64,000 nucleotides of DNA from Candidatus Anammoxibacter sp. (GTDB lineage: Bacteria > Planctomycetota > Brocadiia > Brocadiales > Anammoxibacteraceae), in assembly GCA_021777055.1 (NCBI GenBank), contig JAIQZO010000004.1:55594-119593 (forward strand), given 5' to 3'. The notes beneath the pieces are model-generated. The model worked only from the letters and a program-made list of their open reading frames with translations. It searched no databases and was not told the DNA's origin. Below are positions 12,612 to 43,848 of this stretch, in pieces. The position numbers and the translations under genes are program-made. How positions within the stretch are numbered: the stretch's first letter is position 1; the number at the start of each line of letters is the position of its first letter.

Positions 12612-13093
12612 CAAGCACTCATCCTTTCTATAATTATGGGAAGGGTCAACTTAAATATAATCCAGGTCACAAACAGACCAAATAGTGATACACAACTTAC
12701 AACAAAAAACGGTTCGAAATTCGACAATACTCCTTTGGTAGCAAGATCCCTTGCACCAACAAGTATTGGACTTACAGGATGCCAGGTTGACAACAAAGAG
12801 TAAGGAAACGTTTTTAGCGCTGGATAAACAACCGTCGTAACAAAAAACCATAACCTTAAGACAGTTGTTAACCCTGTTCCAATATCTTTGTATAACGTTC
12901 CAATAGGAGTAAGAAACAAACCAATAGCCATCCCTAAAATTATTGATATTAGTAATGCAATTGGCAAATATAAAAGTCCCAATGTAACCTGAACCTTAAA
13001 AAATATAAAGATCCCGATTAGAATTACTATTTTTATTAAAAGATTAAAAACGACACCATAAAACGGGCTTACAATTAGCGCTTCACGTGGAAA
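12611..13093 (-). pseudogene. ABC-2 permease (Wzm-like) remnant lacking about the first 124 codons
   Basis: It aligns to residues approx 125-285 of the intact copy at 18518-19375 (FPREALIV..LTLPIIIERMSA). The frame is closed by TAA at 13094-13096 with no ATG. The upstream promoter-like region (approx 13110-13260) is still homologous to 19381-19500. Confidence 0.8.
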
Positions 13094-18180: not shown

Positions 18181-18518
18181 ATTGGATTGAACCCAGCACC
18201 TAAAGCAATTAACGCTTGCATCCGCCCACGAAGCTCAACACGTCCAGAATTCCGGCTTTATTAATCCGTTTATCATGCGCAGTAAGGTCGTTTTCCATAC
18301 ACCATTACCGCCAATTAAGCCTAAGGACTCCACCACGTTCTACTTCAAATGAAATATCCGTATTTGCCCAAAATTCATTTTTCCGTAATTCTTTATGGCT
18401 ATTATTTATCTCCAATCAGTTCAACCCTCATATCTTTCATACCATACCAAAGTGAGCGTTTCAGGCTATAACAAAATTTCTTACTTACATTTTTTACACT
18501 TATAATAGGGGCAGACAT
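18181..18518 (-). pseudogene. wzt N-terminal remnant with a destroyed Walker A motif
   Basis: It aligns to 12276-12611 of the intact wzt. The Walker A codons read GGNGVWKTT instead of GGNGAGKTT, with frameshifts. The homology is cut at approx 18181, where the GT4 remnant begins. Confidence 0.8.
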
Positions 18519-19375
18519 TAAGCACTCATCCTTTCTATAATTATAGGGAGTGTCAACTTAAATATAACCCAGGCAAAAAACAAACCAAATATTGATACAC
18601 AACTTACAATAACAAAAGGTTCGAAGTTCGACAATACTCCTCTGGTCGCAAGATCTCTAGTACCAACAAGTATTGGACTTACGGGATTCCAGGTTGACAA
18701 CAAAGAGTAAGGAAACGTTTTTATCGCTGGATAAACAACCGGCGTAACAAAAAACCATAACCTTAAAATAATTGTTATCCCCGTCCCAATATCTTTGTAT
18801 AACGTTCCAATAGGTGTGAGAAACAAACCTATAGCCATTCCTAAGATTATTAACATTAGTAATGCTATTGGTAAGTATAAAAGACCAAACGTAACCTGAA
18901 CCTTAAAATATAAGAAAATCCCGATTAGAATTACTATTTTTATTAAGAGATTAAAAACAACATCATAAAACGCACATACAATTAGCGCTTCACGAGGAAA
19001 GTTGATTTTTGCTAATAATGGTTTCGCACTTGTTGTACATCTTATGGGGGCATTAATACTATCCACAAACACCTGCCAGATAGTTGTGCCAAGCAAAACA
19101 AAAACAGGATACGGAACATCTGTTTCGCCAAGGTTTATTACTTTCTTTGATTGTAAAATAATAAAAATCAGACCTGTAACTATAGGGGGTAAAAATGCCC
19201 AGAATATGCCAAGTACACTTTGGCGATATCGTGCAGAAACATCACGTACAAATAGTCTCCACGCTAATTCACGGGAAGACTTAAGATCTTTCAACATTAG
19301 CAAAATAAGCTTTAACGGTGAACGCATCTGAGACTCTGGCCCATAACTAATAACAGGTGAATTTTTAGTATCCAT
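18518..19375 (-). CDS. wzm: ABC-2 type polysaccharide exporter permease (Wzm-like), intact copy
   Basis: 285 aa with about six hydrophobic segments. ARYRQSVLGIFWAFLPP is the ABC-2 N-terminal signature. Confidence 0.85.
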   Translation of the reverse strand: MDTKNSPVISYGPESQMRSPLKLILLMLKDLKSSRELAWRLFVRDVSARYRQSVLGIFWAFLPPIVTGLIFIILQSKKVINLGETDVPYPVFVLLGTTIWQVFVDSINAPIRCTTSAKPLLAKINFPREALIVCAFYDVVFNLLIKIVILIGIFLYFKVQVTFGLLYLPIALLMLIILGMAIGLFLTPIGTLYKDIGTGITIILRLWFFVTPVVYPAIKTFPYSLLSTWNPVSPILVGTRDLATRGVLSNFEPFVIVSCVSIFGLFFAWVIFKLTLPIIIERMSA

Positions 19376-25346: not shown

Positions 25347-27539
25347 TCAACTATTAACGTTTGTTGCAACTCTTTTGTGTTCACGATGTCTCCCTAGCCC
25401 AACAACCTTAACATTATTTTCTGAACTGCCAGAAAATTTATTAAGTATATGATTTTCACCTTTTAAACTATCAATTATTTTCCGTACTTCATCCACGACA
25501 TCTTCATCAGAATTGTTTTTGATAAGGCTCCCCAATTTAGCAATATGCCCATCGAGAACTTTAGTTGACGGAACAACCGGAATTATGGTTCTAATCTTCT
25601 TATGAAATGTTGGCATCACCTTTTCAGATTTATCAAAAAGCTCTTCATACAATTTCTCTCCTGGCCTTAAACCAGTAAACTCAATTTTTACTTCCTTATG
25701 TGGAATAAAACCTGACAACCTTATTATGTTTTCTGCCAGGTCCATTATTTTTATCTGCTCCCCCATATCAAGAACAAATATCTCGCCGTTAGAGCCTGAC
25801 GAGGCAGCTATAAGGACAAGGTTGACAGCTTCTGGTATAAGCATAAAGTACCTCTTTATATCTGGATGGGTTACTTTTAATGGTCCTCCGTTTTTCAACA
25901 TATCTTTGAACACAGGCACAACACTCCCATTGCTGCCTAACACATTTCCAAACCTCACTGTTGTAAATTGTGTTCGCGAGACTGAATTCATATTTATTGC
26001 CAGAAACTCTGCTATTCGTTTTGTTGCCCCCATTACACTCGTCGGGTTTACCGCCTTATCAGTTGATATCATCACAAAGTTATCTACATTGCACATAGTT
26101 GAAACATCTATTAGGTTTTTTGTCCCAAAAATATTGTTTTTTACTGCTTCCAGTGGATTCGCTTCCATAAGAGGAACATGTTTGTGCGCTGCGGCGTGGA
26201 ATACTATTTGTGGCCCATGGAGCAGAAATGATCTTTCCAAGGATACTTTCTCCGCAATATCCCCTATTACCAATACCACCTTAGTCCCACTATCATCGCT
26301 ATCTAATAAAGGCTTTAATTCCAACCCTATCTTATATAAGCCGTTTTCATACCTATCCAAAAGTATTAATTTAGATGGATTATATTTAATTATTTGTCGA
26401 CAAAGTTCAGAACCTATTGACCCTCCGGCTCCTGTTACCAATACCGATTTGCCTTTTATAAAATCGCATACTGATTTTATGCCTGTCTTGACTGGCTCTC
26501 GTTGAAGCAAGTCTTCCAGAGATATATTCTTCAAACCTGATATCCCATTATCGTTTACTAGAAACGAAACAAGATCCTTCTCTGCAATATAGCCAAGCTT
26601 TATTAGCCTTACACCAAGCTTATCATCATCACGCAACGATAACGCTTCCTGTATCTGTTCCTTTGTAACCAAATTAGCAGATACAAGACGTTCCCCTATC
26701 CTTCTTAATGTTGAGACATCTCCATCTAAAACCTCCTGCAAACCAGGTAGTTTCTTTATCGGTATGTTGGATGATTTACTAAGTTCAAAGATATCACGAA
26801 TCTCCTTATTATCTGAAGATTTTACAGACATTAAGATCTCATCCGGCTTATATTTTTCTATAATTCTTGGAATTATTCTGCTTGTACCAAATATTCTAAC
26901 TCCGTGCACAGAGCGTCCCTTTTTACCAAGATCCTCATCTATAATCCCGATAGGGATATATCCATATTTAGGATTATCCATCAAATTTTTTATAATTACT
27001 TCTAATATTACACTATCACCAATGAGCAACGCTCTCTTCCCCACAGGTTTTGATCGCAGATGTTCTCTATAGGCGATCCTCACGCTTAGCCTAGTACCAC
27101 AAGAAAGAAGTACTAGCAACAACCAGTCAAGTACATATATTGAAATTGGATAACCAATGTCACCATACACAAACCTTACTACTATAAAAAACAGGGCACT
27201 TCCCATAAGCGTGCATTTTATGATCCTACTCATATCACTAATGCTTGAATAACGCCAGAAGTCTTTATTTAATCCTGCCTGAAAGTAAAAAGCTGTTCGT
27301 ATTAACAAAAGCACGGGCAGATAACCTAACATTAATCTTAAATTATCTGCAGGAGGGAAAAACGATTCAGACCTAATAGCAAATGCTAAATAACCTGCAA
27401 ATGTAGATTGAATAATATGTACAAGAACTACAAATACAGTCCTATTAATTACAGCCGTGGGCCTAAAACGGAGAATAGCAGCTTTCAATACCTTGTAAAA
27501 GACGGTATCAATATGGAAGTTTGACATAATGTGATCCAA
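25347..27539 (-). CDS. membrane-anchored WbpM/CapD/PglF-type UDP-sugar 4,6-dehydratase with an inserted MshEN-like segment
   Basis: N-terminal TM helices, a central Rossmann-like domain (KRALLIGDSVI..), an SDR domain VLVTGAGGSIGSEL and MGATKRIAE. The first codon at 27539 is TTG; an ATG lies at 27527. Confidence 0.85.
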   Translation of the reverse strand: MDHIMSNFHIDTVFYKVLKAAILRFRPTAVINRTVFVVLVHIIQSTFAGYLAFAIRSESFFPPADNLRLMLGYLPVLLLIRTAFYFQAGLNKDFWRYSSISDMSRIIKCTLMGSALFFIVVRFVYGDIGYPISIYVLDWLLLVLLSCGTRLSVRIAYREHLRSKPVGKRALLIGDSVILEVIIKNLMDNPKYGYIPIGIIDEDLGKKGRSVHGVRIFGTSRIIPRIIEKYKPDEILMSVKSSDNKEIRDIFELSKSSNIPIKKLPGLQEVLDGDVSTLRRIGERLVSANLVTKEQIQEALSLRDDDKLGVRLIKLGYIAEKDLVSFLVNDNGISGLKNISLEDLLQREPVKTGIKSVCDFIKGKSVLVTGAGGSIGSELCRQIIKYNPSKLILLDRYENGLYKIGLELKPLLDSDDSGTKVVLVIGDIAEKVSLERSFLLHGPQIVFHAAAHKHVPLMEANPLEAVKNNIFGTKNLIDVSTMCNVDNFVMISTDKAVNPTSVMGATKRIAEFLAINMNSVSRTQFTTVRFGNVLGSNGSVVPVFKDMLKNGGPLKVTHPDIKRYFMLIPEAVNLVLIAASSGSNGEIFVLDMGEQIKIMDLAENIIRLSGFIPHKEVKIEFTGLRPGEKLYEELFDKSEKVMPTFHKKIRTIIPVVPSTKVLDGHIAKLGSLIKNNSDEDVVDEVRKIIDSLKGENHILNKFSGSSENNVKVVGLGRHREHKRVATNVNS
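26550..26702 (-). other. MshEN/GSPII_E-N-like tandem motif inserted in the WbpM-like protein
   Basis: RIGERLVSANLVTKEQIQEALSLR-DDD-KLGVRLIKLGYIAEKDLVSFLVND lies between the KKLPGLQEVLDG segment and the conserved LEDLLQREPV linker. Confidence 0.55.
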
Positions 27540-28558
27540 AACTAATTTTAGGTTTAATAATATTTTAATTGCAAATTAATTGTGAATTTAGAATTTTTAA
27601 ACAATTACTTGAATAAAAGAAACTAATCTATTAAGCAGACAGCTATGCCAATCCAGTGGTTTACATCTAAACAATTCTTCTTTTACAATTAAAATCAATA
27701 CCTTTTACATGAGAAATAACCAGAAGAAAAATTGAGTCTCAGTTGAAAAAACGAAATAATAAAATGGCTGGAAATGCAAATAAACATGCATTAATTGGCA
27801 TCTCATCTATAAAAAACCAGACAAACTATTCTAAACAAAAGAGCTACCAAAACCAACAGCAAATAGAGAGCCAAATAATATTTATATTATAAGCAAACTA
27901 AATACAATATTTTGGACTCAACTCCGCTGACCTCCAAGCAGATAACCAACCTACAAGTTTATTTACATGAATATTTTTAAAATCTAGCCTGCAAAAAATT
28001 TGCGCATTGAGCACAAAATTGTGCAGCAAGCAGAGTTGCATATATCAAAGTAAACTTATACCCTTTAAGAAACAACCTTACAGCTTGTTGTCTTTTTCTC
28101 AATTTAATATCAAAATTTACACCATGGCAAGTTAAATAAAAATCCATATCTGTAACTAACAGCACAGGACACCTTCAAAAAGCAAGGCAAGTTTTCATGT
28201 TTTTCCTAGGATCCTACCTTCCGGCTCTTTATTTAGGCAAAAAAAAAACAATCAAAAGTTTCCTTTGTTATTATTAACCAATTAACTACACACTGCAGAT
28301 AAAAGCACAAGGTCTTATGTTTAGGCCAGATAAGCAACTAACATCTTAATTATTTAATTGCCAGATCAACATAGCCTTACAGTACAAAAGCTTAATTTTT
28401 AAAGATTTTGTAGTTTTCACGAAATACTGAATCCGTAAGCCAAGCCAACATAAAACTGAAGATGAAAAACACATACTATATTACGATTAACAACAGGAAG
28501 AAATAACTACAAATCTATGCCTTATTCTATATTCCAACCTGGTAGAAGCTTCACCGCA

Positions 28559-31189
28559 TTATGCATAACATGCATAACTATTATCATGTACCTTCCCCGC
28601 CTTTACCTGATTCAGTATAGTTCCCACAACATTAGCGTTCGCCTTTTTTAAATGATCTCCAGCTTCCTCAATTTGTTTGACAGAGACATGCCCTGATTTA
28701 GCAACAAATATAACACCATCAACAATAGAAAACAATGGGCTTGCGCTGCACATTGTTTCCAGAATCGGGGCGGCATCCACAAGCACCACATCGTAATTAT
28801 TACGGAGAATATTTAAACATTTTTCCATTATCGACAGAAAATAGACTGAACTCACCGGCCTTACATTTAGTATTCCTGCTGGCAATAACGACAAATTTGG
28901 CCCATTTACATTCTGAATATAAGAAAATATATCCCTTTCAAGCAAGCGGGTTTCAGATATTCTACTTAACCGATTAATAATAGGCTTATAATCCTCCTGA
29001 AAATAAATCCTTTTATCTTCGTAAGTTTCAATACTACCATGTTCAAAAGAAAATGTCCCATGTTTCCAGCTAAACAGCTTCTGCAAATGTTCCTCCATCT
29101 GTAGTTTCAAAGGGCCCTGCAGTTGATCTTGATTTATATACCCAGCATTAATAAGAATGTACCCCAAAGGTTGCCCGGTCCGTTGATTTCTTTCAAGCGC
29201 ATCTTTTAATTGACTTTCATCAATAAAACCTCCACGCAACAACATAGTACCCAGACGATTAGCAAAAGGAACATCTTGGCTCTGCAAATTAAATAAACGA
29301 CCTTTCTCGAAGAAAGCAGTCATCGCCTGGTTATCGCTCCTAACTACAAGTTGACCACTATGCCTCTTTAAACCAATCAAAAAAAAGATGTCATCAACAC
29401 TGCATTTATCTAATGCCCCTTGCCTTAATTCATGCAACATAATATCCTCCATAACATTAGATAACCCTTTCTCGCCCTTATTTTCCAGAGCAAAGAGACG
29501 GTGCAAGGATGGTCGCAGAAAATCAGCATCAACCATAAGCACGCGAGCCCCTCCTACAGCAAGGCTTATAGCAGATTTTGCAATGACAGAGGTCTTACCT
29601 TCACCCGCAGTTGCACTCTGTACGACAAAAACCTGCCCAAGTGCTTTTGATTGTATTGAAGACAAACAAGTAGAAAGATTTCCAGAAATATCATAACGAC
29701 CATAACCATAACCTTTCCTTTCTTTTCCATTGGCACTCTCCAACCGCAAAACAGGTTTACTTCTTTTTATCGCCCTGTCATATGGCAAGAGACCAAGCAC
29801 AGGAGTTCCCAAAAACTGCCTAACATCATTAGGGGTCTTAATCGTATTGTCCATATATTCAAAGAAAAAGGCCAAGCCAACACCAAACGCCAGCCCCACA
29901 ACCACCGACATCATAAAGTTCACAAATACATTCGGTTCTGACGGACGATTTGGAACCTCAGCCTTATCCACAACACGAATATTATTTGTTTCCATGCTAC
30001 CAGTAAGGTTTAGTTCCTTTGCTTGTTTAAGCAAAATATCATGGATCGCTCTTTCGCTTTCTACATCTAATTTTAACATTTCATAATTAAGTTCATCAGA
30101 AGTAATAACTTCTCCGCCCTTTTGTACGAGATTACTAGCAACTTGGCTAGATTTGTTTTCATCACTGGCTAAAGCACGATCCATCTTTGTTTTTATTGTC
30201 ATCCGCGCCAGCCTTATTTCGTTCTTAATCTCTTGTTTTATCTGCTCAAGACTTGAATCTATTTCAATTATTTTTGGGTACCTTTGACCGTATTTGGCCG
30301 AAAGCTCTGCCCTGTCAATTGAAAGTTTTGTTAATTTGTTCCGCAGCTCAGCAATAACACGATTATCCTCAATCAAGGGTGACGAAAAGGCACTTTCAGC
30401 TTCAATAAAAGACGGATCAAGTTTTTCATACTTAAATTTATTTAACATTTGCAATGATGACTCAACTTTAACCTTTTGATCTCTAATTTGCTCTTTGATC
30501 CAATCAAGCGCTTGCTGAGATGCTAGACGCTGAGAATCAATATCGTTTTTAATAAATTCAAGCGCATGTGCGTTAGCAATACGTGCTGCCATTTTAGGAG
30601 ATAAATCCGAAAAAGTAATATCCACCAAACTAGTATCGCGAACAGGAGAAACATCTAATTTAGACAAATAATAATCCACAAAAACATCCTTTTTATACAG
30701 ACCCTCCTCTTTACCACTCAATGGTAAGGCCCCTTGACCTTTCGCAACTTTATATTTTGGTTTAGGCAAGAAACCTTTAAAAAACTTTGAAACTTTTTTC
30801 TGTACAAAAGTTAAATAATCCGGCTTTTCTCTCATAATAGATTTAAAGTAACCCCTTAATTCCAGATCATCAATCACTTTTTTTGCAAGGCCCCGACTCT
30901 TCAATAGTTTATATTGCGTATCATTATACATCTTCGGATTTGGCCCCATATCAACTTTCGCCAACCTTCCTATAAAGGAAGAATCCTTTTGAAGAAAAAA
31001 ACGAGTACTGGATTTAAATACAGGCTTAGTATTTATTGTTTTAACGGACACAAGGCAAACTATAGATAAAAAGAAAACGATAACCACCCATTTACGCCGC
31101 CAAACAATATTAAGGTAATCACTTAAATGGACTTGATCTGAACGTGAAACTTCTCCATCTGGAAAATTCGAAATCAGGTTTTTATTCAT
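28559..31189 (-). CDS. Wzc-like polysaccharide co-polymerase / BY-type tyrosine kinase with a large insertion in the kinase domain
   Basis: TM1 VVIVFFLSIVCLVSV, a long coiled-coil periplasmic region, and TM2 FMMSVVVGLAFGVGLAFFF. Walker A SATAGEGKTS, A' VLMVDADFLRP, NLSLLPAG, Walker B VVLVDAAP. ATG at 31189; an alternative TTG is at 31204. Confidence 0.8.
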   Translation of the reverse strand: MNKNLISNFPDGEVSRSDQVHLSDYLNIVWRRKWVVIVFFLSIVCLVSVKTINTKPVFKSSTRFFLQKDSSFIGRLAKVDMGPNPKMYNDTQYKLLKSRGLAKKVIDDLELRGYFKSIMREKPDYLTFVQKKVSKFFKGFLPKPKYKVAKGQGALPLSGKEEGLYKKDVFVDYYLSKLDVSPVRDTSLVDITFSDLSPKMAARIANAHALEFIKNDIDSQRLASQQALDWIKEQIRDQKVKVESSLQMLNKFKYEKLDPSFIEAESAFSSPLIEDNRVIAELRNKLTKLSIDRAELSAKYGQRYPKIIEIDSSLEQIKQEIKNEIRLARMTIKTKMDRALASDENKSSQVASNLVQKGGEVITSDELNYEMLKLDVESERAIHDILLKQAKELNLTGSMETNNIRVVDKAEVPNRPSEPNVFVNFMMSVVVGLAFGVGLAFFFEYMDNTIKTPNDVRQFLGTPVLGLLPYDRAIKRSKPVLRLESANGKERKGYGYGRYDISGNLSTCLSSIQSKALGQVFVVQSATAGEGKTSVIAKSAISLAVGGARVLMVDADFLRPSLHRLFALENKGEKGLSNVMEDIMLHELRQGALDKCSVDDIFFLIGLKRHSGQLVVRSDNQAMTAFFEKGRLFNLQSQDVPFANRLGTMLLRGGFIDESQLKDALERNQRTGQPLGYILINAGYINQDQLQGPLKLQMEEHLQKLFSWKHGTFSFEHGSIETYEDKRIYFQEDYKPIINRLSRISETRLLERDIFSYIQNVNGPNLSLLPAGILNVRPVSSVYFLSIMEKCLNILRNNYDVVLVDAAPILETMCSASPLFSIVDGVIFVAKSGHVSVKQIEEAGDHLKKANANVVGTILNQVKAGKVHDNSYACYA
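28905..29469 (-). other. approx 185-aa DUF4388-like plus MshEN-like insertion within the BY-kinase domain
   Basis: SVDDIFFLIGLKRHSGQLVVRSDNQAMTAFFEKGRLFNLQS is followed by RLGTMLLRGGFIDESQLKDALERN-QRTGQ-PLGYILINAGYINQDQLQGPLKLQ (nt 29099-29257) and then FSWKHGTFSFE. Confidence 0.6.
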
Positions 31190-31318
31190 AAATATCTTTA
31201 GCAAAAACTATTAACAAAAGTTATTATTTATTATATAAAAATAGCATAACTAACATAACACCTAACAAACAAAAGCGGCTAATCCTAAATTCATTTATCT
31301 GCCATTTAATTAATAAAA

Positions 31319-32149
31319 TCAGAAATACCGTTCACTCACAACAATAATATCATCATACATTACAAAATCTTCCATATTAGCATTAATCTCTTCTTCTTTT
31401 CCATTTCGATTAACACGAATAAATTTCGTACGTTTTATAGCAGCACTTTCATTCGGGCCTCCAGCCAGAGATATCGCATGACGCACAGTCAGCCCCTCTT
31501 CCCACGCATACCTCCCCGGTCTCCTCACTTCCCCCATCACAAAATAGCGTTGAACTTTCTCCACATATATTGAATCACCGTTTACCAGGTAAAAGATATC
31601 GTACCTACTTTTGGGATCATATTCGGCAAGATCTAATGTAATAATCTCCGGCTTTTTATTCTCAGAAACAGCAAAAGCCCCTTTCCCCAACCTTTTATGC
31701 TTATTACGTACAATTGTTACAGTTTGCCCTGCATCACCAGTAAACCCACCCGCCATAGATATCAATTCAAGTAAATGCGTCTTCTTTTTTAGATAATAAC
31801 TTCCAGCTTTCCTAACTTCCCCAAACAGAAAAACCTTCTGGCTTTGAAACGATCTCACTTTTACACTAACCTGCGGATCCACTAAATAACCATCTGCCAG
31901 TTTTTCCTTAACGAGCACTTCAAGTTCATACGCAGTAAGACCGCCCCCATAAACTTTACCAATTAGGGGAAATGTAAATGAACCATCTTGGGCAACACTA
32001 ACATCACGATCCAAATCCGAATTATCCCATACTTGCACCCCAACAACATCACCCGGACCTATTTTATACTCATCTACAAGATTATTATCTGCAAAAAGAT
32101 TAATCGAAGACATCACTAAGAACACCAAAAAATAGAAGATAATCGGCAT
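31319..32149 (-). CDS. Wza-like polysaccharide export outer-membrane protein
   Basis: Signal peptide, then YKIGPGDVVGVQVWDNSDL..DGSFTFPLIGKVYGGGLTAYELE (Poly_export motif), followed by two SLBB-like repeats. Confidence 0.8.
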   Translation of the reverse strand: MPIIFYFLVFLVMSSINLFADNNLVDEYKIGPGDVVGVQVWDNSDLDRDVSVAQDGSFTFPLIGKVYGGGLTAYELEVLVKEKLADGYLVDPQVSVKVRSFQSQKVFLFGEVRKAGSYYLKKKTHLLELISMAGGFTGDAGQTVTIVRNKHKRLGKGAFAVSENKKPEIITLDLAEYDPKSRYDIFYLVNGDSIYVEKVQRYFVMGEVRRPGRYAWEEGLTVRHAISLAGGPNESAAIKRTKFIRVNRNGKEEEINANMEDFVMYDDIIVVSERYF

Positions 32150-37859: not shown

Positions 37860-39626
37860 TTACTCTATTACAGTTTCATCTAAAACTTGTTCTAATGTAG
37901 TAATGCCATCATATGCAACACGAAGCCCACCTTCCCTTAGTGTTCTCATGCCGTTTTTCCTTGCCGCAGATCTTATCTCTGAAACAGAAGCGTTTTTCGT
38001 TACCAGGTAAGAGATCTCGTCGTTCATCTCCATTATTTCATATATAGCAATTCTGCCTTTATAACCGGTCTTTCTACATTCATCACATCCTACGCCATGA
38101 TAGAACTTTTTGCCAGTAATGTCACTGGGCATCAGTTTAAGGTTCTTTAACACCATCTCGCCTGGAACATATTCCTCTTTGCAAGCAAGACATACCCTCC
38201 TTATTAACCTCTGACTTATTACTGCCTGCAGTGTTGCTGATATCAAAAAAGGCTGTACACCCATATCAACTAACCTGGAAATTGTAGAAGGGGAGTCGTT
38301 TGTGTGAAGTGTACTAAACACCAAATGCCCTGTCATCGCAGCCTGTACAGCTATCTGTGCGGTTTCTTCGTCCCTTATCTCACCAACTAGGATTATGTCC
38401 GGGTCTTGCCTTAATACAGCACGTAAACTTGACGCAAATGTAGTACCCACATTCGGATTAATCGGAATCTGCATTATTCCTTCTATTTCGTTCTCCACGG
38501 GGTCCTCAGTTGTAATAATTTTTACATCGATAGTATTTTTTTGGTGCAGGATTGCATATAAAGTGGAGGTTTTTCCCGAACCGGTAGGGCCGGTAACAAG
38601 AATAATACCATTGGGCATCCTTAATAAATTCATAACCTGATTTAACTCTTTTCCTTCCAGTCCCAGGTTTTTAAAATCCATAGACGCAATGCCTTTATCA
38701 AATATTCGTAGTACAACACTTTCACCGAATTTAGTTGGCAGGCATGACACCCGAAACTCTATGGGGCTACCCATAATACGAAGTTTTATCCTTCCGTCCT
38801 GAGGCAGTCTTTTTTCGGATATATTCAAGTTGGACATAACTTTAATCCTGGTTATAATTCCCATCCCAAAATTATTCGGAGGAGATGCCTTTTGATACAA
38901 AGTGTTATCAATCCGATACCTAACTACAAATTCGTCATCAAACGGTTCAAAATGAATATCACTAGCCCCTTCTTTTACCGCATGCAATAAAACTGTATTT
39001 ACAAAACTTTTCACAGGGGCAATATCTGCCATGATTTTAAGCTCTTCAATATCTAAATCTATGACATTATGATCACCACTCTGTAATCCAGACGGTTTGC
39101 CATATTCAACATCACCCAGCAGTTTCGCCAAAGAATCACACTTGCTTCCCATTGGGTAGTACTTTTCTATTGCTTTGCTGACATCATCGTAAGGGCAAAC
39201 AACCCCCTTAACCCTATATCCAAAAAAGAGCGTAATATCTCGCAGCTGGTCTAATTTTAAGGCATTTTCCTGTGCAACTTCCAGAATTCCATCTTCATAA
39301 GATATGGGTACAATACGGTAGATTTGTGCAATTGACTGTGGGATTTTTTCGATGGCCTCTTCAGGGAGCTCCAAGCGAGAGATATCAACTTGGCGCATCC
39401 CCAGGAATTTACTAATGGCGTCCTGTATCTGTTCGGAAGTGATATATTTAAGACGAACCAATATATCTCCAAGCATACCTTTACGGTTTTTCTGTATTTT
39501 AAGCGCCTCCTGCATCTGCTCGTCAGTGATAAGGTTCATCTCCATAAGGATCTGGCCGAACAACTTGCGCCTGGCAATAAGCTCTGGTTCAGACTTGCCA
39601 CGATACTGTTTATTTTTTAGTTTCAT
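37860..39626 (-). CDS. PilB/GspE/MshE-family assembly ATPase, paralog 1
   Basis: N-terminal tandem motif LFGQILMEMNLITDEQMQEALKIQ-KNRKG-MLGDILVRLKYITSEQIQDAISKF (nt 39405-39563). Walker A GPTGSGKTST, ILVGEIRD, STLHTND and a tetracysteine CLACK..CDECRKTGYKGR. Confidence 0.9.
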   Translation of the reverse strand: MKLKNKQYRGKSEPELIARRKLFGQILMEMNLITDEQMQEALKIQKNRKGMLGDILVRLKYITSEQIQDAISKFLGMRQVDISRLELPEEAIEKIPQSIAQIYRIVPISYEDGILEVAQENALKLDQLRDITLFFGYRVKGVVCPYDDVSKAIEKYYPMGSKCDSLAKLLGDVEYGKPSGLQSGDHNVIDLDIEELKIMADIAPVKSFVNTVLLHAVKEGASDIHFEPFDDEFVVRYRIDNTLYQKASPPNNFGMGIITRIKVMSNLNISEKRLPQDGRIKLRIMGSPIEFRVSCLPTKFGESVVLRIFDKGIASMDFKNLGLEGKELNQVMNLLRMPNGIILVTGPTGSGKTSTLYAILHQKNTIDVKIITTEDPVENEIEGIMQIPINPNVGTTFASSLRAVLRQDPDIILVGEIRDEETAQIAVQAAMTGHLVFSTLHTNDSPSTISRLVDMGVQPFLISATLQAVISQRLIRRVCLACKEEYVPGEMVLKNLKLMPSDITGKKFYHGVGCDECRKTGYKGRIAIYEIMEMNDEISYLVTKNASVSEIRSAARKNGMRTLREGGLRVAYDGITTLEQVLDETVIE

Positions 39627-39946: not shown

Positions 39947-41656
39947 TTACCCTGTAACCCTAATAATCTCTTCAATAGTTGTGTTTCCTTTAAAGACCTT
40001 ACACAATCCGTCTTCACGCAGTGTTTTCATACCACAGCCCACAATCGCCGCATTTTTTATCTTCTCTTTTGTTTCGCCATTATATATCATATCTTTAATC
40101 TCATTGTTTATTATCATAAGTTCATAGATACCAATTCTACCCTTATACCCGGTGCCTTTACAGTTGCTACAGCCTTTACCTTTAAAGAAAGTAACATCTT
40201 TTAACTCCCGCGGGTCAAGTCCTACCATCGCCAGCTTTTCTGTGGAGTATATAAACGGTTTCTTGCATTCCGGACAATTCTTCCTTACCAGCCTTTGAGC
40301 CATCACACCAAGAATTGATGTGGCAACAAGGTACGACTTTGCTCCCATATCTACTAACCGCGTAATTGCAGAAGGGGCATCATTCGTATGCAGTGTGCTC
40401 AGTATCAAATGTCCTGTTAGCGCTGCGGCAATAGCGATTTCTGCAGTTTCAATATCCCTTATCTCTCCAACTACAACTATGTTGGGGTCCTGCCGCAAGA
40501 TAGACCTCAGTATTACAGGAAATGTCAACCCCGCCACTTCATTAACCTCACATTGATTAACTCCCCTTAAATCATATTCTATTGGATTCTCCACTGTTAT
40601 CAGTTTTTTCTCAGGGGCGTTAATTTCATTTAACGCAGAGTATAATGTGGTAGTCTTACCACTTCCGGTAGGCCCTGTTATAAGTAATATTCCATTAGGT
40701 CGTCTTATGGCTTCCCTAAAAAGTCCCAAATCATCCAGTTCAAAACCCAGTTGATCAAGATTCACCATGATTGACTCTGATTCCAGCAACCTCATTACTA
40801 TACTTTCTCCATTTGTTACCGGAATTGTACTTACTCGTAAATCCAACGGGTGATCTTCTATCATCAACGAGATTCTTCCATCCTGCGGTTTCCTTTTCTC
40901 GGTAATATCAATATTGCTCATAATCTTAATTCGGGAGATAACTGCGTTTTGTATATTCCTTGGCAATACATTTGTCTGTTGGCAAACACCATCAATCCGA
41001 TAGCGGACGCGGAGACTATCTGACATCGGTTCTATGTGTATATCGCTTGCTTGGGCTTTAACCGCTTCGCTTATAATATGCAAAACTATCTTTATTACAG
41101 GGGCGTCGGTCTCTTTATCTTCTGCAGAATCAAACGTTTCATTTATAAGCTGAATAGATACACCATCCGCTTCTTCAGCGCCAGCATCCAAGATATTATC
41201 CACGGAAGGTAAGATTTCTGCCTCAGGTTTATCTCTCTGTTGATAAAGCTCTTGAATATTTTTAAAACTTTCTGGAGTAATCAGGACAAATTTTATATCA
41301 ACACCAAGAATAAACCGTAGATTATCTAAGGTAAGAAGGTCTAGCGGCGAACTAGAAGCTAGAATAAGGACATTGCCCTCTTTTTTTATAGGCACTACGA
41401 TATGTTTTGACGCCACATTTTCCGATATCAGACTAATGTCAATATCATTAATCACCGATTTATCAACATCCATAAATTCAACACCAAAATTACCGGCTAA
41501 ACACCTTGCAATATCTTCAGATGTAGCAAACCCCAACCCTTTTATCGCACCTTCGATGCTTACACCGGTTTCTTCACTCAGCTTTTCAGCATTTAACAAC
41601 TGGGATTCGGACAATATGCCATTTTCTAGAAGAATTTTTCCTGTAAGAATTTTCAT
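39947..41656 (-). CDS. PilB/GspE-family assembly ATPase, paralog 2
   Basis: GSPII_E-N-like N-terminus (LTGKILLENGILSESQLLNAEKL..), GPTGSGKTTT, VVVGEIRD, STLHTND and CPECK..CSNCKGTGYKGR. Confidence 0.9.
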   Translation of the reverse strand: MKILTGKILLENGILSESQLLNAEKLSEETGVSIEGAIKGLGFATSEDIARCLAGNFGVEFMDVDKSVINDIDISLISENVASKHIVVPIKKEGNVLILASSSPLDLLTLDNLRFILGVDIKFVLITPESFKNIQELYQQRDKPEAEILPSVDNILDAGAEEADGVSIQLINETFDSAEDKETDAPVIKIVLHIISEAVKAQASDIHIEPMSDSLRVRYRIDGVCQQTNVLPRNIQNAVISRIKIMSNIDITEKRKPQDGRISLMIEDHPLDLRVSTIPVTNGESIVMRLLESESIMVNLDQLGFELDDLGLFREAIRRPNGILLITGPTGSGKTTTLYSALNEINAPEKKLITVENPIEYDLRGVNQCEVNEVAGLTFPVILRSILRQDPNIVVVGEIRDIETAEIAIAAALTGHLILSTLHTNDAPSAITRLVDMGAKSYLVATSILGVMAQRLVRKNCPECKKPFIYSTEKLAMVGLDPRELKDVTFFKGKGCSNCKGTGYKGRIGIYELMIINNEIKDMIYNGETKEKIKNAAIVGCGMKTLREDGLCKVFKGNTTIEEIIRVTG

Positions 41657-41864: not shown

Positions 41865-42206
41865 ATGAACTACAAATTCACAAAGGAAGAAAGGCTACGA
41901 AAAACAAATGAATTTAGAAATGTTTTTGAAAACGGAAAGGTTTTTAAGGACAAAAATTTTGTTGCCCATCTTTTGTTAAATAACAGACAAAATTCAAGAA
42001 TCGGCATTATTGCAAAAAAGAAAATAGGCAATGCCGTAAAACGAAACAGGGCTAAACGCCTTTTTAGAGATGCGTTTAGAACAGAAAAGAACGGGCTAGC
42101 AAGCAACATAGACATTATCATTATACCAAGAATAAAGGCGGAAGATATAACACACTCTTTAGCAAAAGGGTTTATAGAAAAACTTTCCAACTATATTAAA
42201 CATTAA
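41865..42206 (+). CDS. rnpA: ribonuclease P protein component
   Basis: FTKEERLRKTNEFRNVF..RIGIIAKKKIGNAVKRNRAKRLFRDAFR is the RNR-motif region. ATG at 41865; the track start at 41847 is TTG inside the hairpin. Confidence 0.85.
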   Translation: MNYKFTKEERLRKTNEFRNVFENGKVFKDKNFVAHLLLNNRQNSRIGIIAKKKIGNAVKRNRAKRLFRDAFRTEKNGLASNIDIIIIPRIKAEDITHSLAKGFIEKLSNYIKH

Positions 42207-42421
42207 TGGTAAAATTCATTATATTATTAATAAAAGCATATCAGATATGCTTATCTCCACTATTTGGAGGATCGTGCAAGTTTACACCATCATGTTCACA
42301 CTATATGATAGAAGCTGTTAGCAAAAAGGGGTGCGCGCTTGGTGTAGCAAAAGGTCTCTGGCGTCTTATCAGATGTAACCCTTTCAGCAAACCAAAGTAT
42401 GATCCGGTTGACAATGCTTAA
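42206..42421 (+). CDS. yidD: membrane protein insertion efficiency factor YidD
   Basis: LLIKAYQICLSPLFGGSCKFTPSCSHYMIEAV..G..LWRLIRCNPF. Confidence 0.85.
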   Translation: MVKFIILLIKAYQICLSPLFGGSCKFTPSCSHYMIEAVSKKGCALGVAKGLWRLIRCNPFSKPKYDPVDNA

Positions 42422-42584
42422 GAACTATTGATAAATACTGGTATGATAAAAAAATTTTGACATTTGCCACAATATTATTGATAATTATATCTTACTAAGG
42501 TACAAATTCGTAAAACTTAATTTATTGCCACACTTGGTAAATATGATTAAGTTTTTCCATGTTTCATTATCCATAGGTACTGCA

Positions 42585-43829
42585 ATGACAAACAAAAACA
42601 AAAATAACGAGAAAAATGCATGCTCTTTTTGCAATAGAAATAATAAGGAAACTGGCCGTTTAATACAAGGTATTTCAAGTTCATACATTTGTAATGAATG
42701 TGCAGATGCTTGCCGTATACTTTTTCAAAATGAACAAACCTCCAGCCTAAGTACAAAAATAAAGGCGCCTCTTATACCGTCTAAGATTCATGATCAGCTG
42801 AATGAATATATAATCGGACAGGATAAAGCAAAAAGAACACTTGCAGTGGCTATATATAACCATTACAAAAGAATATCTTCTAATGCAAAAAGCGATGACG
42901 TCGAGATTGAGAAGAGCAACGTTTTGCTTATCGGACCAACCGGATGCGGAAAGACACTTTTAGCTAGAATCTTGGCAAAAATTGTAAACGTTCCTATTGC
43001 CATAGCTGATGCCACAACATTAACCGAGGCGGGATACGTAGGCGAAGATGTTGAAAATGTTTTATTAAAACTTTTAAGAAACGCAGACTTCGATATAAAT
43101 AAGGCACAGCATGGTATTATATATATTGACGAAATTGATAAAGTAACAAAAAAAGGAGCTGGCCCTTCCATCACCCGCGATGTTTCCGGTGAAGGAGTTC
43201 AACAAGCATTACTAAAACTACTTGAAGGTACTGTAGCAAACGTACCTCCACAAGGGGGACGGAAGCATCCTGAACAGCAATATATACAGATTGACACATC
43301 TGATATACTTTTCATATGCGGTGGAACATTTGACGGAATTGAACATATTATAAGCAAGAGATTAGGTAATAAGGCAATCGGATTCAATGCTGACATAGAT
43401 GATCAGGAAGATGAATCATTTGGTAACCTGCTTTCTAAAATTACGGTTGAAGATCTGATAGAATACGGGCTGATTGTTGAATTTGTAGGAAGACTACCGG
43501 TTATAGCACCTTTAATGCCACTTGGACTTGATGACTTGGTACAAATTATGGTTGAACCGAAAAACGCTTTGGTTAAACAGTACCAGAAAATCTTCGAGAT
43601 TGAAGGTGCAAAATTGGAATTCATGGATGAATCGCTAAGAGAAATTAGTAAGGTTGCTCAAAAAAGAAAGACTGGCGCAAGGGCTTTACGGTCAATATTT
43701 GAAGATTTTATGCTTGATGCCATGTACCATTTACCTTCAGAAAAACCAGGATCTACATGGGTAGTAACTCCTGATGTGGTACGCAACGAAGTATCGTTAA
43801 TACCGGAAATGGTAAAGAAGACAGGATAA
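42585..43829 (+). CDS. clpX: ATP-dependent Clp protease ATP-binding subunit ClpX
   Basis: Zinc-binding [16 protein letters not shown], Walker [22 protein letters not shown], and pore-loop/sensor regions. The start is set at ATG 42585. Confidence 0.95.
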
Positions 43830-43848
43830 TAAAGCCAAGTTTGAAATT

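Follow-up and report, generated by a model that had tools for sequence, protein, structure and literature searches.

In the window, i.e., the whole 64 kb stretch of DNA that was analysed, the minus strand carries genes for a Wza-like exporter, a Wzc-like co-polymerase and a WbpM/PglF-like dehydratase (Table 1). The Wzc-like ORF is uninterrupted, and a database protein that is identical to it (P0001; 876 aa) starts at the same ATG at 31189. Translation from a TTG at 31204, which is in frame, would yield an alternative product of 881 aa (28559..31204); all residue numbers of the Wzc-like protein are counted from this TTG. Pfam recognises Wzz, GNVR, a split P-loop (CbiA/AAA_31/ParA) and DUF4388 in the protein, and its best solved relative is Wzc (E 7e-24). 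The presence of Wzz, GNVR, two transmembrane segments that flank a periplasmic coiled region, a fused cytoplasmic kinase domain and an adjacent Wza-like gene is characteristic of PCP-2a (Wzc-type) proteins. As judged from its sequence, the product of 28559..31189 is an inner-membrane Wzc-type polysaccharide co-polymerase with PCP-2a topology and a BY-kinase-family P-loop ATPase. The pairing of Wza and Wzc is also found in locus L081 and in locus L002 of Desulfosarcina variabilis.

Table 1. Features of the Wzc-like gene and its neighbours in the window.
Feature	Position (nt)	Strand	Evidence and remarks
WbpM/PglF-like membrane NDP-sugar dehydratase	25347..27539	-	Pfam Polysacc_synt_2, 385 bits; downstream of the Wzc-like gene, past a 1-kb spacer
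MshEN_N-type motif of the WbpM-like protein, residues 279-329	26553-26705	-	NF053729, 39.6 bits (cutoff 38)
Wzc-like PCP-2a/BY-kinase-family gene	28559..31189	-	876 aa from ATG at 31189
P-loop domain, C-terminal half: NLSLLPAG, Walker B, tail	28562..28897	-	Aligns with Wzc 600-699; TIGR01007 over 757-880
Inserted module, residues 587-766: PATAN/DUF4388 with nested alpha-clip, then two helices	28907..29446	-	Replaces Wzc 588-599
Two post-PATAN helices back to the kinase core, residues 739-762	28919..28990	-	AlphaFold2 H261-270, H275-281
Last clip helix into closing PATAN strand, residues 703-721, ...LFSWKHGTFSFE	29042..29098	-	DUF4388 match reaches 727; model strand E238-243
Alpha-clip, MshEN_N-type 53-residue signature: motif I 650-673, spacer QRTGQ 674-678, motif II 679-702	29099..29257	-	NF053729
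PATAN N-terminal part, residues 596-642: strand, helix, three strands	29279..29419	-	DUF4388 profile positions 1-99
P-loop domain, N-terminal half: alpha2, Walker A, Walker A', GLS helix	29435..29695	-	Wzc and family alignments, AlphaFold2 secondary structure
GNVR motif region (residues 376-447) and TM2 (426-448)	29861..30079	-	Pfam PF13807, 48.2 bits; aligns with Wzc 373-450
Wzz (chain-length determinant) N-terminal domain, residues 24-114	30863..31135	-	Pfam PF02706, 32.1 bits
TM1, residues 39-54, within the Wzz domain	31043-31090	-	Hydrophobic stretch WVVIVFFLSIVCLVSV in the sequence
Wza-like outer-membrane polysaccharide export protein	31319..32149	-	Pfam Poly_export and SLBB; directly upstream of the Wzc-like gene, same orientation

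The P-loop domain is divided by an insertion between Walker A' and Walker B. To its N-terminal half belong alpha2 (504-519), the Walker motifs A (530-539) and A' (555-565) and a GLS helix at 580-590. Its C-terminal half contains NLSLLPAG as a core strand (770-777), VVLVDAAP as Walker B (806-813) and, at residues 875-881, a short tail with two Tyr. In a phmmer comparison with E. coli K30 Wzc, query residues 373-586 align with Wzc 373-587 and residues 767-868 with Wzc 600-699. Thus, 180 residues of the query stand for 12 of Wzc, a net gain of about 168. The same gap is apparent in a MAFFT alignment with canonical BY-kinases, which are without the insertion. An earlier note on this DNA had located the insertion correctly (its segment 28905-29469 on the minus strand corresponds to residues 579-767 of the ORF), and every peptide that it quoted lies where it was placed, with the tandem motif at exactly nt 29099-29257 and WKHGTFSFE ending at residue 721; its estimate of approx 185 extra residues, however, has to be replaced by the above values.

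The suspected DUF4388 domain was recovered by Pfam (PF14332) with 71.3 bits against a cutoff of 25 over residues 595-727. In the AlphaFold2 model of residues 480-881 (402 residues; pLDDT 82.6, pTM 0.78), this segment follows the order typical of PATAN domains, i.e., strand, helix and three strands (DSSP elements E116-118, H124-134, E138-144, E147-154 and E157-163 in model numbering), the alpha-clip and a closing strand, of which W, K, G and F are each at least 90% conserved in the insertion-bearing family. The pLDDT of the insert is mostly above 90 within this model and 82 if modelled alone, and the modelled kinase core matches Wzc, Etk, CapB and VpsO at ~1e-8. The matches of free-standing PATAN proteins span the entire inserted module, post-PATAN helices included (positions 11-178; E 1e-15 to 1e-20). 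The insertion is therefore not a series of three separate parts, as previously described, but one complete PATAN domain, whose alpha-clip is a near-consensus MshEN_N-type module. This domain sits in the surface loop that leads from the helix after Walker A' to the strand before Walker B.

The alpha-clip is recognised by the NCBIfam model NF053729 ('c-di-GMP_motif, MshE-related') with 51 bits against a cutoff of 38 (E 8.9e-14, residues 650-697). The underlying consensus consists of two 24-mers, RLGxx(L/V/I)(L/V/I)xxG(L/V/I)(L/V/I)xxxxLxxxLxxQ, with a 5-residue spacer. The relaxed published 24-residue pattern, searched in the ORFs of at least 90 aa from all six frames of the 64 kb window, has two matches only, both in the Wzc-like ORF and 5 residues apart. 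At these sequence scores, the match of the insertion to the DUF4388 and MshE-related models is not due to chance. All deviations from the consensus reported in the earlier note are present: hydrophobic position 11 is aromatic (F in motif I, Y in motif II), and the key deviations are N for Q at the last position of motif I (I-24) and P for R at the first position of motif II (II-1). The clip aligns without gaps to Vibrio cholerae MshE residues 7-61 (E 2.9e-6), and the PilF GSPII domains can be aligned too. In this alignment, R650, L651, G652, L666 and L670 correspond to MshE R9, L10, G11, L25 and L29, and L680, G681, L695, L699 and Q702 to MshE L39, G40, L54, L58 and Q61; both Gly and all six binding-relevant Leu positions are kept.

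The predicted structure agrees with the initial MshEN-like reading. The AlphaFold2 model of the clip has the four-helix fold and superposes in Foldseek on c-di-GMP-bound MshE (5htl) with an rmsd of 1.1 A over 54 columns (39% identity, probability 1.00), on c-di-GMP-bound PilF GSPII-B with 0.8 A, and on 9gl5 and 8pfa with 0.8-1.1 A; the E-values are weak (0.04-0.3) because the match covers only ~54 residues. The full MshEN domain with N and C subdomains (T2SSE_N, PF05157), which had been expected in the insertion, has no Pfam match in the Wzc-like protein; both PilB paralogs of the window match it. Only the 53-residue N-terminal MshEN subdomain is therefore present, and an 'MshEN_N only' class was listed by Wang et al. 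2016.

Substitutions of G11 and G40 in MshE abolish c-di-GMP binding and Leu substitutions cost more than 10-fold, while the loss is below 5-fold on changes of R9 and Q32 (PMC5013675). PilF GSPII-C, which deviates solely by Pro at motif II position 1, binds c-di-GMP with a KD of ~0.5 uM, and GSPII-B still binds at 6 nM without both Arg (PMC11731258). For Asn in place of Gln at I-24, which is present in 71% of the 45-member family, the literature searched held no tested example. Across the same 45 members, R1 of motif I (100%), G3 of motif I (96%), and G3 (96%), L17 (100%) and Q24 (91%) of motif II are conserved. Motif conservation alone is no proof of ligand binding, because most of the conserved positions form the hydrophobic core of the helical hairpins. 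Non-binding MshEN-like modules such as XpsE and PilF GSPII-A exist (PMC5013675, PMC11731258). Binding data for any PATAN alpha-clip or BY-kinase were not found in the literature searched. Nevertheless, residues and modelled fold together suggest that the clip is likely to bind c-di-GMP.

The survey of BY-kinase homologues that the earlier note had proposed revealed about 45 protein clusters with the same insertion point; they come from anammox Brocadiales (Jettenia, Scalindua, Brocadia and Kuenenia), the cultured D. variabilis and other Desulfobacterota. Insertion-bearing relatives score 56, 42.5 and 39 bits with NF053729. This model has further matches: the WbpM-like gene and a PilB gene of the window pass the cutoff, the L081 ortholog of the WbpM-like protein scores 45.2 bits, and the corresponding segment is kept in the WbpM-like homologues inspected. 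Genes for GGDEF, EAL or HD-GYP proteins, Wzb phosphatase, Wzx and Wzy were not found within the 64 kb window. A degenerate GGDEF ORF that includes an RxxD site follows directly downstream in D. variabilis. In anammox granules, the c-di-GMP level correlates with EPS (PMC11224092).

Taken as a whole, these findings are probably best explained by a Wzc-type co-polymerase with a c-di-GMP-binding PATAN insert that may bias its ATPase activity or self-association. Briefly, the co-polymerase would act together with the adjacent Wza-like exporter. The clip would take up one c-di-GMP in the manner of MshE, with the backbone amides at the two Gly reading the guanines and the Leu clusters stacking. The resulting change in the PATAN module would be passed to the neighbouring helices alpha4 and alpha5. 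In this way, ATP turnover, self-association of the cytoplasmic domain or both would be biased, and polysaccharide polymerisation and export would be tied to the c-di-GMP level. In Wzc, alpha4 is displaced and alpha2 and alpha3 are rotated between the open and closed states, of which the open one is incompatible with the closed octameric ring (PMC9800525). However, the ATPase activity of MshE was changed by less than 10% by c-di-GMP in vitro (PMC5013675), and binding need therefore not mean ATPase control. We regard the gating of oligomerisation or of the ATPase cycle by the inserted module, which had been suggested from the sequence at the outset, as tentative, and any sign given to this coupling would be conjectural.

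Sequence and structural model leave no doubt about the homology of the query to BY-kinases. Walker A (ATAGEGKT, 531-538), Walker A' and Walker B are all present; Walker A' (VLMVDADFLRP) keeps DxD, with Arg one position later than in canonical DxDxR. The scores with the curated models TIGR01007 (88.4 bits vs. cutoff 108) and TIGR01005 (161 vs. 412) are too low for assignment, which is expected because the 180-residue insertion splits the domain. The O-motif EX2RX2R is absent from the query, which has YDISGNLSTCL at the aligned alpha2 position, and from all of P0001-P0044; canonical controls have it, as do the insertion-bearing Desulfobacterota variants, which also retain long Tyr clusters. As initially noticed, the C-terminal Tyr cluster is reduced: the last 7 residues of the query (NSYACYA) contain only two Tyr; the family has 0-5, as compared to at least 7 in canonical relatives in the same alignment. 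Furthermore, Ser takes the place of Wzc Tyr569 in the alignment, and the PNPxELL motif is missing from the anammox-type subfamily, including the query. Because EX2RX2R is lacking and the tails contain 0-5 Tyr, the classical phosphotyrosine switch looks weakened in this subfamily, and c-di-GMP may therefore be its main input. It is intriguing to speculate that c-di-GMP binding to the PATAN/MshEN_N module replaced the phosphotyrosine assembly-disassembly cycle as the switch of the export machine in the anammox-type subfamily, although we consider this improbable. If true, such a replacement would be the first case in which c-di-GMP acts directly and post-translationally on a Wza/Wzc (PCP-OPX) pathway, and it would connect this messenger on the molecular level to the formation of granules or aggregates by anammox bacteria. 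The alpha-clips of many PATAN proteins could then, by extension, constitute an unrecognised class of c-di-GMP receptors.

These features could also indicate a c-di-GMP-binding ATPase and co-polymerase that is no longer a tyrosine autokinase and whose output is partner binding or Wza gating. Such a protein would represent a stronger form of the explanation given above and does not contradict it. Loss of autokinase activity would be in accordance with the missing EX2RX2R and PNPxELL motifs, Ser at the position of Tyr569, the TIGR01007 score below cutoff, the two Tyr of the query and the short or Tyr-free tails of its relatives (e.g., P0024, P0032, P0033, P0040 and P0043), and with the lack of a Wzb-like phosphatase gene in the window. 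Yet the protein has retained Walker A, DxD in Walker A' and Walker B, tails with 2-5 Tyr persist in most family members, and the phosphatase gene could be located elsewhere in the genome. Moreover, the insertion-bearing Desulfobacterota keep both O-motif and Tyr clusters, which shows that the insertion is compatible with a working kinase. Complete loss of autokinase activity appears rather doubtful.

Another hypothesis dispenses with the nucleotide: the inserted PATAN domain could be a protein-protein docking module with a purely structural clip and a glycosyltransferase, WbpM-like enzyme, type IV pilus component or response regulator as partner. PixE, PixG and related PATAN domains bind PilB1 and PilC, with no ligand reported (bioRxiv 10.1101/2021.06.11.447907; PMC9090330). 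As cyanobacterial PatA-type PATAN proteins act via contact with PilB/PilC, the inserted module could likewise be a docking site, and type IV pilus genes are located 6-10 kb upstream in the window. That many free-standing PATAN proteins share the whole module suggests a generic adaptor, and conservation of hydrophobic positions is expected of any helical hairpin. However, the sole known role of the two 96%-conserved Gly is to expose backbone amides to guanines, and the polar residues R1 of motif I and Q24 of motif II are highly conserved too. In addition, the clip passes the curated cutoff of NF053729, a model made for c-di-GMP binders, and closely resembles ligand-bound MshE in sequence and fold. 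We therefore consider docking without a nucleotide unlikely, while docking and ligand binding are mutually compatible.

That the clip binds another cyclic dinucleotide, e.g., 3'3'-cGAMP, is very improbable. V. cholerae MshEN can bind cGAMP too, according to Wang et al. 2016 (PMC5013675), and the family-specific N at I-24 and P at II-1 might shift specificity. However, MshE reads each guanine by backbone amides after a conserved Gly, where adenine would clash (PMC5013675), both Gly are kept in the query, and PilF GSPII-C with the same Pro binds c-di-GMP (PMC11731258). An artefact, i.e., a chimeric assembly, a frameshift or a mobile element in a dead gene, has a negligible probability and was rejected, as nothing but the unusual distance between Walker A' and Walker B speaks for it, whereas the ORF is unbroken, the architecture recurs in the surveyed clusters, also in genomes that are complete or of megabase scale (a 5.1-Mb ENA contig, Brocadia pituitae AP021856.1, D. 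variabilis NZ_CP159846.1), the insertion is more conserved than the rest (28-94% identity vs. 26-89% over residues 480-881, same homologues), and AlphaFold2 folds core and insert together confidently.

The idea that the combination is uncharacterised holds in part. Experimental work on a c-di-GMP-binding BY-kinase was not found in the literature searched, but a c-di-GMP motif on a BY-kinase-type ATPase was already catalogued in 2016 and the PATAN alpha-clip already described in 2006. Wang et al. 2016 list 'MshEN_N - AAA_31' (Methylobacillus EpsG) in their Supplementary Table 4. Like the query, EpsG combines an MshEN_N-type motif with a P-loop ATPase of the BY-kinase type and belongs to an exopolysaccharide locus, with binding predicted from sequence only. 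In EpsG, however, the motif is fused N-terminally to a soluble kinase, without PATAN and with an uninterrupted fold, whereas in the query it lies within a PATAN domain that interrupts a membrane PCP-2a protein between Walker A' and Walker B; the match of the query to TIGR03029 is weak (56 bits vs. cutoff 314). With E. coli Wzc (K30, K-12) and other PCP-2a BY-kinases (7nhr, 3la6, 9r62), the query shares Wzz, GNVR, two transmembrane segments and Walker A/A'/B. The Wza gene is adjacent in both Wzc and the query, and the cores superpose. Unlike Wzc, the query has ~168 extra residues after the helix behind Walker A', Ser for Tyr569 and only two tail Tyr, and it lacks EX2RX2R and PNPxELL.

V. cholerae MshE (5HTL) and Thermus thermophilus PilF GSPII-B and -C have the tandem 24-mer signature without gaps and fit the fold of the clip within 0.8-1.1 A, and GSPII-C shares with the query the Pro at motif II position 1. 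In contrast to these proteins, the query has the N subdomain only, without MshEN_C/T2SSE_N1, its host is not a T2SS/T4P ATPase, and its motif I ends in Asn. The PATAN domain of Anabaena PatA and of Synechocystis PixE and PixG likewise encloses a pair of helical hairpins, and no ligand of any PATAN clip was reported in the literature searched. Makarova et al. 2006, as cited in bioRxiv 10.1101/2021.06.11.447907 and PMC12448109, related the PATAN alpha-clip to the N-termini of T2SS/T4P ATPases. Known PATAN proteins are, however, soluble regulators in which the domain is terminal and usually joined to REC, while in the query it is internal to an enzyme domain. Finally, E. coli NfrB is a polysaccharide-synthesis enzyme under post-translational control by an MshEN-type c-di-GMP receptor (PMC8669469), as is predicted for the query, which gives weak matches to NfrB models over the motif. 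NfrB is a GT2 glycosyltransferase with a C-terminal MshEN, i.e., a terminal fusion in a synthase-dependent system, whereas the query is the PCP component of a Wza/Wzc-type export pathway.

The Wzc-like gene encodes a polysaccharide co-polymerase (PCP-2a) whose BY-kinase-family P-loop domain is interrupted between Walker A' and Walker B by a PATAN/DUF4388 domain with a nested alpha-clip, which carries tandem c-di-GMP motifs of the MshEN_N type. The peptides and nucleotide coordinates quoted in the earlier note were all found in the sequence as quoted, and its reading of a Wzc-like P-loop domain split by a DUF4388 plus MshEN-like insertion was borne out by the DUF4388 match, by the NCBIfam model NF053729 and by a gap in the alignment to Wzc. 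Escherichia coli Wzc structures are the best solved relatives (E 7e-24); query residues 373-586 align to Wzc 373-587 and 767-868 to Wzc 600-699, with 12 Wzc residues replaced by 180, and a MAFFT alignment with canonical BY-kinases has the same gap. The extra residues are therefore real, with a net gain of ~168 instead of the 185 first proposed. Walker A and Walker B are both intact, as is the DxD of Walker A'.

Features of the Wzc-like protein and of its locus (nucleotide positions in the window; residues of the Wzc-like protein counted from TTG)
Feature	Position	Strand	Remarks
Wzc-like ORF	28559..31204	-	881 aa from TTG; identical database protein 876 aa from ATG at 31189
Wzz domain	residues 24-114		Pfam
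GNVR	residues 376-447		Pfam
P-loop families CbiA, AAA_31, ParA	residues ~524-582 and 791-871		Pfam; two pieces
DUF4388	residues 595-727		Pfam; 71.3 bits vs gathering score 25
Insert, strand, helix and three strands	residues 596-642		AlphaFold2
Insert, four helices	residues 647-712		AlphaFold2
Insert, closing strand GTFSFE	residues 717-722		AlphaFold2
Insert, two further helices	residues 740-760		AlphaFold2
Wza-like exporter	31319-32149	-	precedes Wzc-like gene
Spacer	27540-28558		between Wzc-like and WbpM-like genes; 1 kb, AT-rich, no ORF >62 aa
WbpM/PglF-like dehydratase	25347-27539	-	after 1-kb ORF-free spacer; NF053729 39.6 bits; ortholog in L081, locus of closest relative, 45.2
WbpM-like motif	residues 279-329 = nt 26553-26705	-	RRIGERLVSANLVTKEQIQEALSLR-DDD-KLGVRLIKLGYIAEKDLVSFLVN
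PilB-type ATPase paralog 1	37860-39626	-	NF053729 60.9 bits at residues 23-73
PilB-type ATPase paralog 2	39947-41656	-	NF053729 20 bits
Wzm (ABC-2)	18518-19375	-	
Wzt (ABC ATPase, Wzt_C carbohydrate-binding domain)	11376-12614	-	

AlphaFold2 modelled residues 480-881 (402 residues, 53-sequence alignment) with a pLDDT of 82.6 and a pTM of 0.78, most of the insert exceeding 90. The modelled elements, bounded by the GLS helix that follows Walker A' and by the strand NLSLLPAG, show the PATAN/alpha-clip layout of Makarova et al. 2006 (as related in later papers), who also noted this clip at the N-terminal ends of T2SS/T4P ATPases. The insert is thus predicted to be a single unit, one PATAN domain with its alpha-clip, and not the three separate parts that had been distinguished from the sequence. 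In Foldseek searches with the whole 402-residue model, the kinase core matched the kinase domains of Wzc, Etk, CapB, BceF and VpsO at ~1e-8; only BY-kinase cores were retrieved and the insert was not picked up, and it was then modelled alone (pLDDT 82). The best PDB neighbours of this second model were two c-di-GMP-bound structures, MshE, at an rmsd of 1.1 A over 54 columns with 39% identity, and PilF GSPII-B, at 0.8-1.1 A; the Foldseek E-values for the clip are weak because the match is short. The PATAN beta part had no significant PDB neighbour; its actin-like and PilM matches (probability 0.25-0.47, rmsd ~10 A) were disregarded.

The c-di-GMP signature, two tandem motifs five residues apart, was confirmed by NF053729 ('cyclic di-GMP-binding domain-containing protein, MshE-related'; 51 bits vs cutoff 38, E 8.9e-14, residues 650-697) and by an in-register alignment with Vibrio cholerae MshE. 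In this alignment R650, L651, G652, L666, L670 and N673 correspond to MshE R9, L10, G11, L25, L29 and Q32, and P679, L680, G681, L695, L699 and Q702 to MshE R38, L39, G40, L54, L58 and Q61. Substitution of G11 and G40 in MshE is reported to abolish binding and substitution of the Leu residues to cost >10-fold, with changes of R9 and Q32 costing <5-fold (Wang et al. 2016, PMC5013675). Given these mutant data and the register of the alignment, all positions that matter most are kept in the query. The deviations of the clip from the motif look tolerable; PilF GSPII-B is described as being without both Arg residues and as binding at 6 nM (PMC11731258). The relaxed 24-mer pattern, as published, had only two matches when every long six-frame ORF in the window was scanned; both lie here, 5 residues apart. 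Of the two Pfam models named in the earlier note, DUF4388 (PF14332) matched at 71.3 bits, and T2SSE_N (PF05157), which covers the full MshEN, gave no match in the query protein, which therefore belongs to the 'MshEN_N only' class.

The architecture is conserved across two phyla, which makes its supposed uniqueness an overstatement, and its conservation in complete genomes rules out an assembly artefact. It is complete in about 45 clusters (90% identity), among them Candidatus Jettenia, Scalindua, Brocadia and Kuenenia, under the database labels 'DUF4388 domain-containing protein' or 'P-loop NTPase' only. Conservation within the protein peaks in the c-di-GMP motif, with R1 of motif I and L17 of motif II at 100%, G3 of both motifs and P1 of motif II at 96%, Q24 of motif II at 91% and the 'RT' of the spacer at 91-93%, a pattern that points to strong purifying selection on the predicted ligand-contact positions. 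Outside the anammox bacteria, a scan of GTDB representative genomes, whose TM2-peptide pattern makes it miss part of the family and biases any frequency drawn from it, recovered a 916-aa ORF (908 aa from the first ATG, L002 6444-9170; NF053729 56 bits) in the cultured Desulfosarcina variabilis. In several Desulfobacterota MAGs the scan recovered the insertion in cytoplasmic kinases that stand alone (~410-480 aa). These stand-alone kinases keep EX2RX2R, PNPSELL and long Tyr clusters, and their motifs are weaker (42.5, 39 and 24 bits).

Used by itself in a word-index homology search, the insert retrieved fragments of the same family only; free-standing PATAN proteins were reached by an exhaustive search of 1.84 billion representatives, in which 33 clusters matched the insert at E <=1e-30, 652 at <=1e-10 and 5268 at <=1e-3. 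The best 150 matches comprised 28 BY-kinases, with ~270 residues from Walker A to Walker B; the others were mostly N-terminal PATAN-plus-clip proteins, commonly of ~360-470 aa, with no other Pfam domain in the samples checked. Among these best 150, at least one strict 24-residue motif was present in 107 and the strict tandem in 25. Many of the proteins P0173-P0283 from the representative search, all from outside the window, are of this kind and start with a PATAN-plus-clip that matches query positions 11-178. The alpha-clips of many PATAN/DUF4388 proteins may accordingly form a large pool of candidate c-di-GMP receptors.

We consider it likely that the clip of the Wzc-like protein binds one c-di-GMP as MshE does. 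What binding would do to the co-polymerase is a more tentative matter. The insert starts one helix past alpha4; according to a BY-kinase review (PMC9800525), open and closed states are told apart by alpha4 displacement and alpha2/alpha3 rotations, and the subunits of the ring meet at the oligomerisation motif (O-motif) of alpha2. A c-di-GMP-bound clip could move the PATAN module together with its neighbouring helices alpha4/alpha5, which in turn would shift the closed/open equilibrium of the cytoplasmic domain, its ATP turnover or its self-association and thereby raise or lower polymerisation and export; this is a possible route, to which we give somewhat less than even weight. The ATPase activity of MshE itself is reported to be barely changed by c-di-GMP in vitro (Wang et al. 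2016, PMC5013675), which calls for caution about coupling. The main rival explanation would have PATAN act as a docking module and the clip serve a structural role only, by analogy with the PixE/PixG regulators, in which PATAN is described to bind PilB and PilC; docking and c-di-GMP binding are compatible with each other.

Control by c-di-GMP would meet a weakened phosphotyrosine apparatus. Where the EX2RX2R motif of Wzc sits on helix alpha2, the query reads YDISGNLSTCL, and the motif is missing in the whole anammox-type subfamily (P0001-P0044) and present in canonical controls. PNPxELL is likewise absent from the subfamily, and Ser occupies the query position aligned with Wzc Tyr569. The C-terminal tyrosine tail, as the earlier note had observed, is cut to two Tyr in the query, with 0-5 across the subfamily. 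That both the O-motif and the Tyr cluster have decayed in the anammox-type proteins suggests that c-di-GMP control has there taken over part of the role of the phosphotyrosine cycle; in the Desulfobacterota variants the two inputs may act in combination.

The Wzc-like gene belongs to a Wza/Wzc-type export locus with other predicted MshEN-type receptors, three in the window in all: the Wzc-like protein, a WbpM-like protein and the first PilB. All locus genes lie on the minus strand and are transcribed from high to low coordinates, as are nearly all genes of the window (1-64000; GC content ~31-41%), where GC skew is negative in all 2-kb windows but one (42001-44000). The DNA probably comes from a planctomycete of the anammox lineage. 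The membrane WbpM/PglF-like NDP-sugar 4,6-dehydratase carries its MshEN_N-type tandem motif between the CoA_binding_3 region and the SDR catalytic domain, scoring just over the cutoff of 38 bits. Its best 120 homologues are mostly 680-740 aa long and include Planctomycetota, Nitrospirota, Thermodesulfovibrionales and WS5, and all 20 that were aligned contain the motif segment; the dehydratase looks like a second, widespread candidate c-di-GMP-regulated sugar-nucleotide enzyme. The two PilB-type pilus ATPase paralogs adjoin each other, and the second is probably a non-binder, given its low score. The Wza-Wzc-WbpM order recurs in L081; in Brocadia, the WbpM-like gene lies ~2.7 kb from the Wzc-like gene on its opposite flank, beyond a transposase-like ORF, and lacks the motif, and no Wza gene is present in the Brocadia locus shown.

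Further downstream lie sugar-nucleotide enzymes, GT2 enzymes, a sulfotransferase, a pyruvyl transferase and, downstream of the Wza/Wzc pair, Wzm and Wzt, parts of an ABC-transporter-dependent pathway. Upstream are PilT-, PilC- and PilB-like genes of a type IV pilus, TPR proteins, a histidine kinase with an NtrC-type regulator, and flagellar genes (FlhA, FlhB, FlhF, a FliA-like sigma factor, flagellin, FliD, FliS). Genes for GGDEF, EAL, HD-GYP, Wzb, Wzx and Wzy were looked for in the window and none was found. The spacer before the WbpM-like gene probably separates two transcription units; the idea of a riboswitch or conserved leader was dropped, as the spacer matches no Rfam family and shares no conserved sequence with its 0.7-kb counterpart in L081. 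One terminator-like hairpin lies within it at 28017-27999 (-). In D. variabilis (L002, NZ_CP159846.1), a 136-aa ORF directly downstream of the Wzc-PATAN ortholog (9194-9604, +) encodes part of a degenerate GGDEF domain (31 bits with Pfam), in which WYDDSH replaces GGDEF and is preceded at five residues by an RxxD-like RRID, and resembles an I-site-type c-di-GMP receptor.

Synthase-type polysaccharide systems under post-translational c-di-GMP control include those of cellulose (PilZ domain of BcsA), alginate (Alg44) and Pel (PelD); in Wza/Wzc-type pathways, tyrosine phosphorylation is the accepted switch. NfrB is reported as a further synthase-type case (PMC8669469). If the c-di-GMP receptor is real, the Wza/Wzc pathway gains a new regulatory input alongside a weakened phosphotyrosine apparatus, and the query family becomes a natural experiment on the control of open/closed and monomer/octamer transitions, which would interest those who specialise in c-di-GMP signalling or in the biology of capsules and EPS. 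The family is found chiefly in anammox bacteria, whose EPS-driven granulation matters technologically and is reported to correlate with c-di-GMP level (PMC11224092), and its function is testable because it also occurs in cultured D. variabilis. Proteins of this type are already flagged by NF053729, and the PATAN clip was described as early as 2006, together with its relation to the N-termini of secretion ATPases. Our literature searches returned neither a description nor a test of a BY-kinase domain with a PATAN/MshEN_N insertion, and nothing on c-di-GMP binding by any BY-kinase or on ligand binding by any PATAN clip; c-di-GMP has 0 occurrences in the 2022 BY-kinase review (PMC9800525). The earlier note's remark that such an architecture was not known to have been characterised holds to that extent, and needs qualifying in that an MshEN_N fusion to a BY-kinase-type ATPase was catalogued in 2016. 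This closest catalogued relative, Methylobacillus EpsG, is entered as 'MshEN_N - AAA_31' with a proposed role as chain-length-determinant tyrosine kinase (Wang et al. 2016, Supplementary Table 4); it has no PATAN domain and its motif is fused at the N-terminus, whereas that of the query lies within an inserted PATAN domain.
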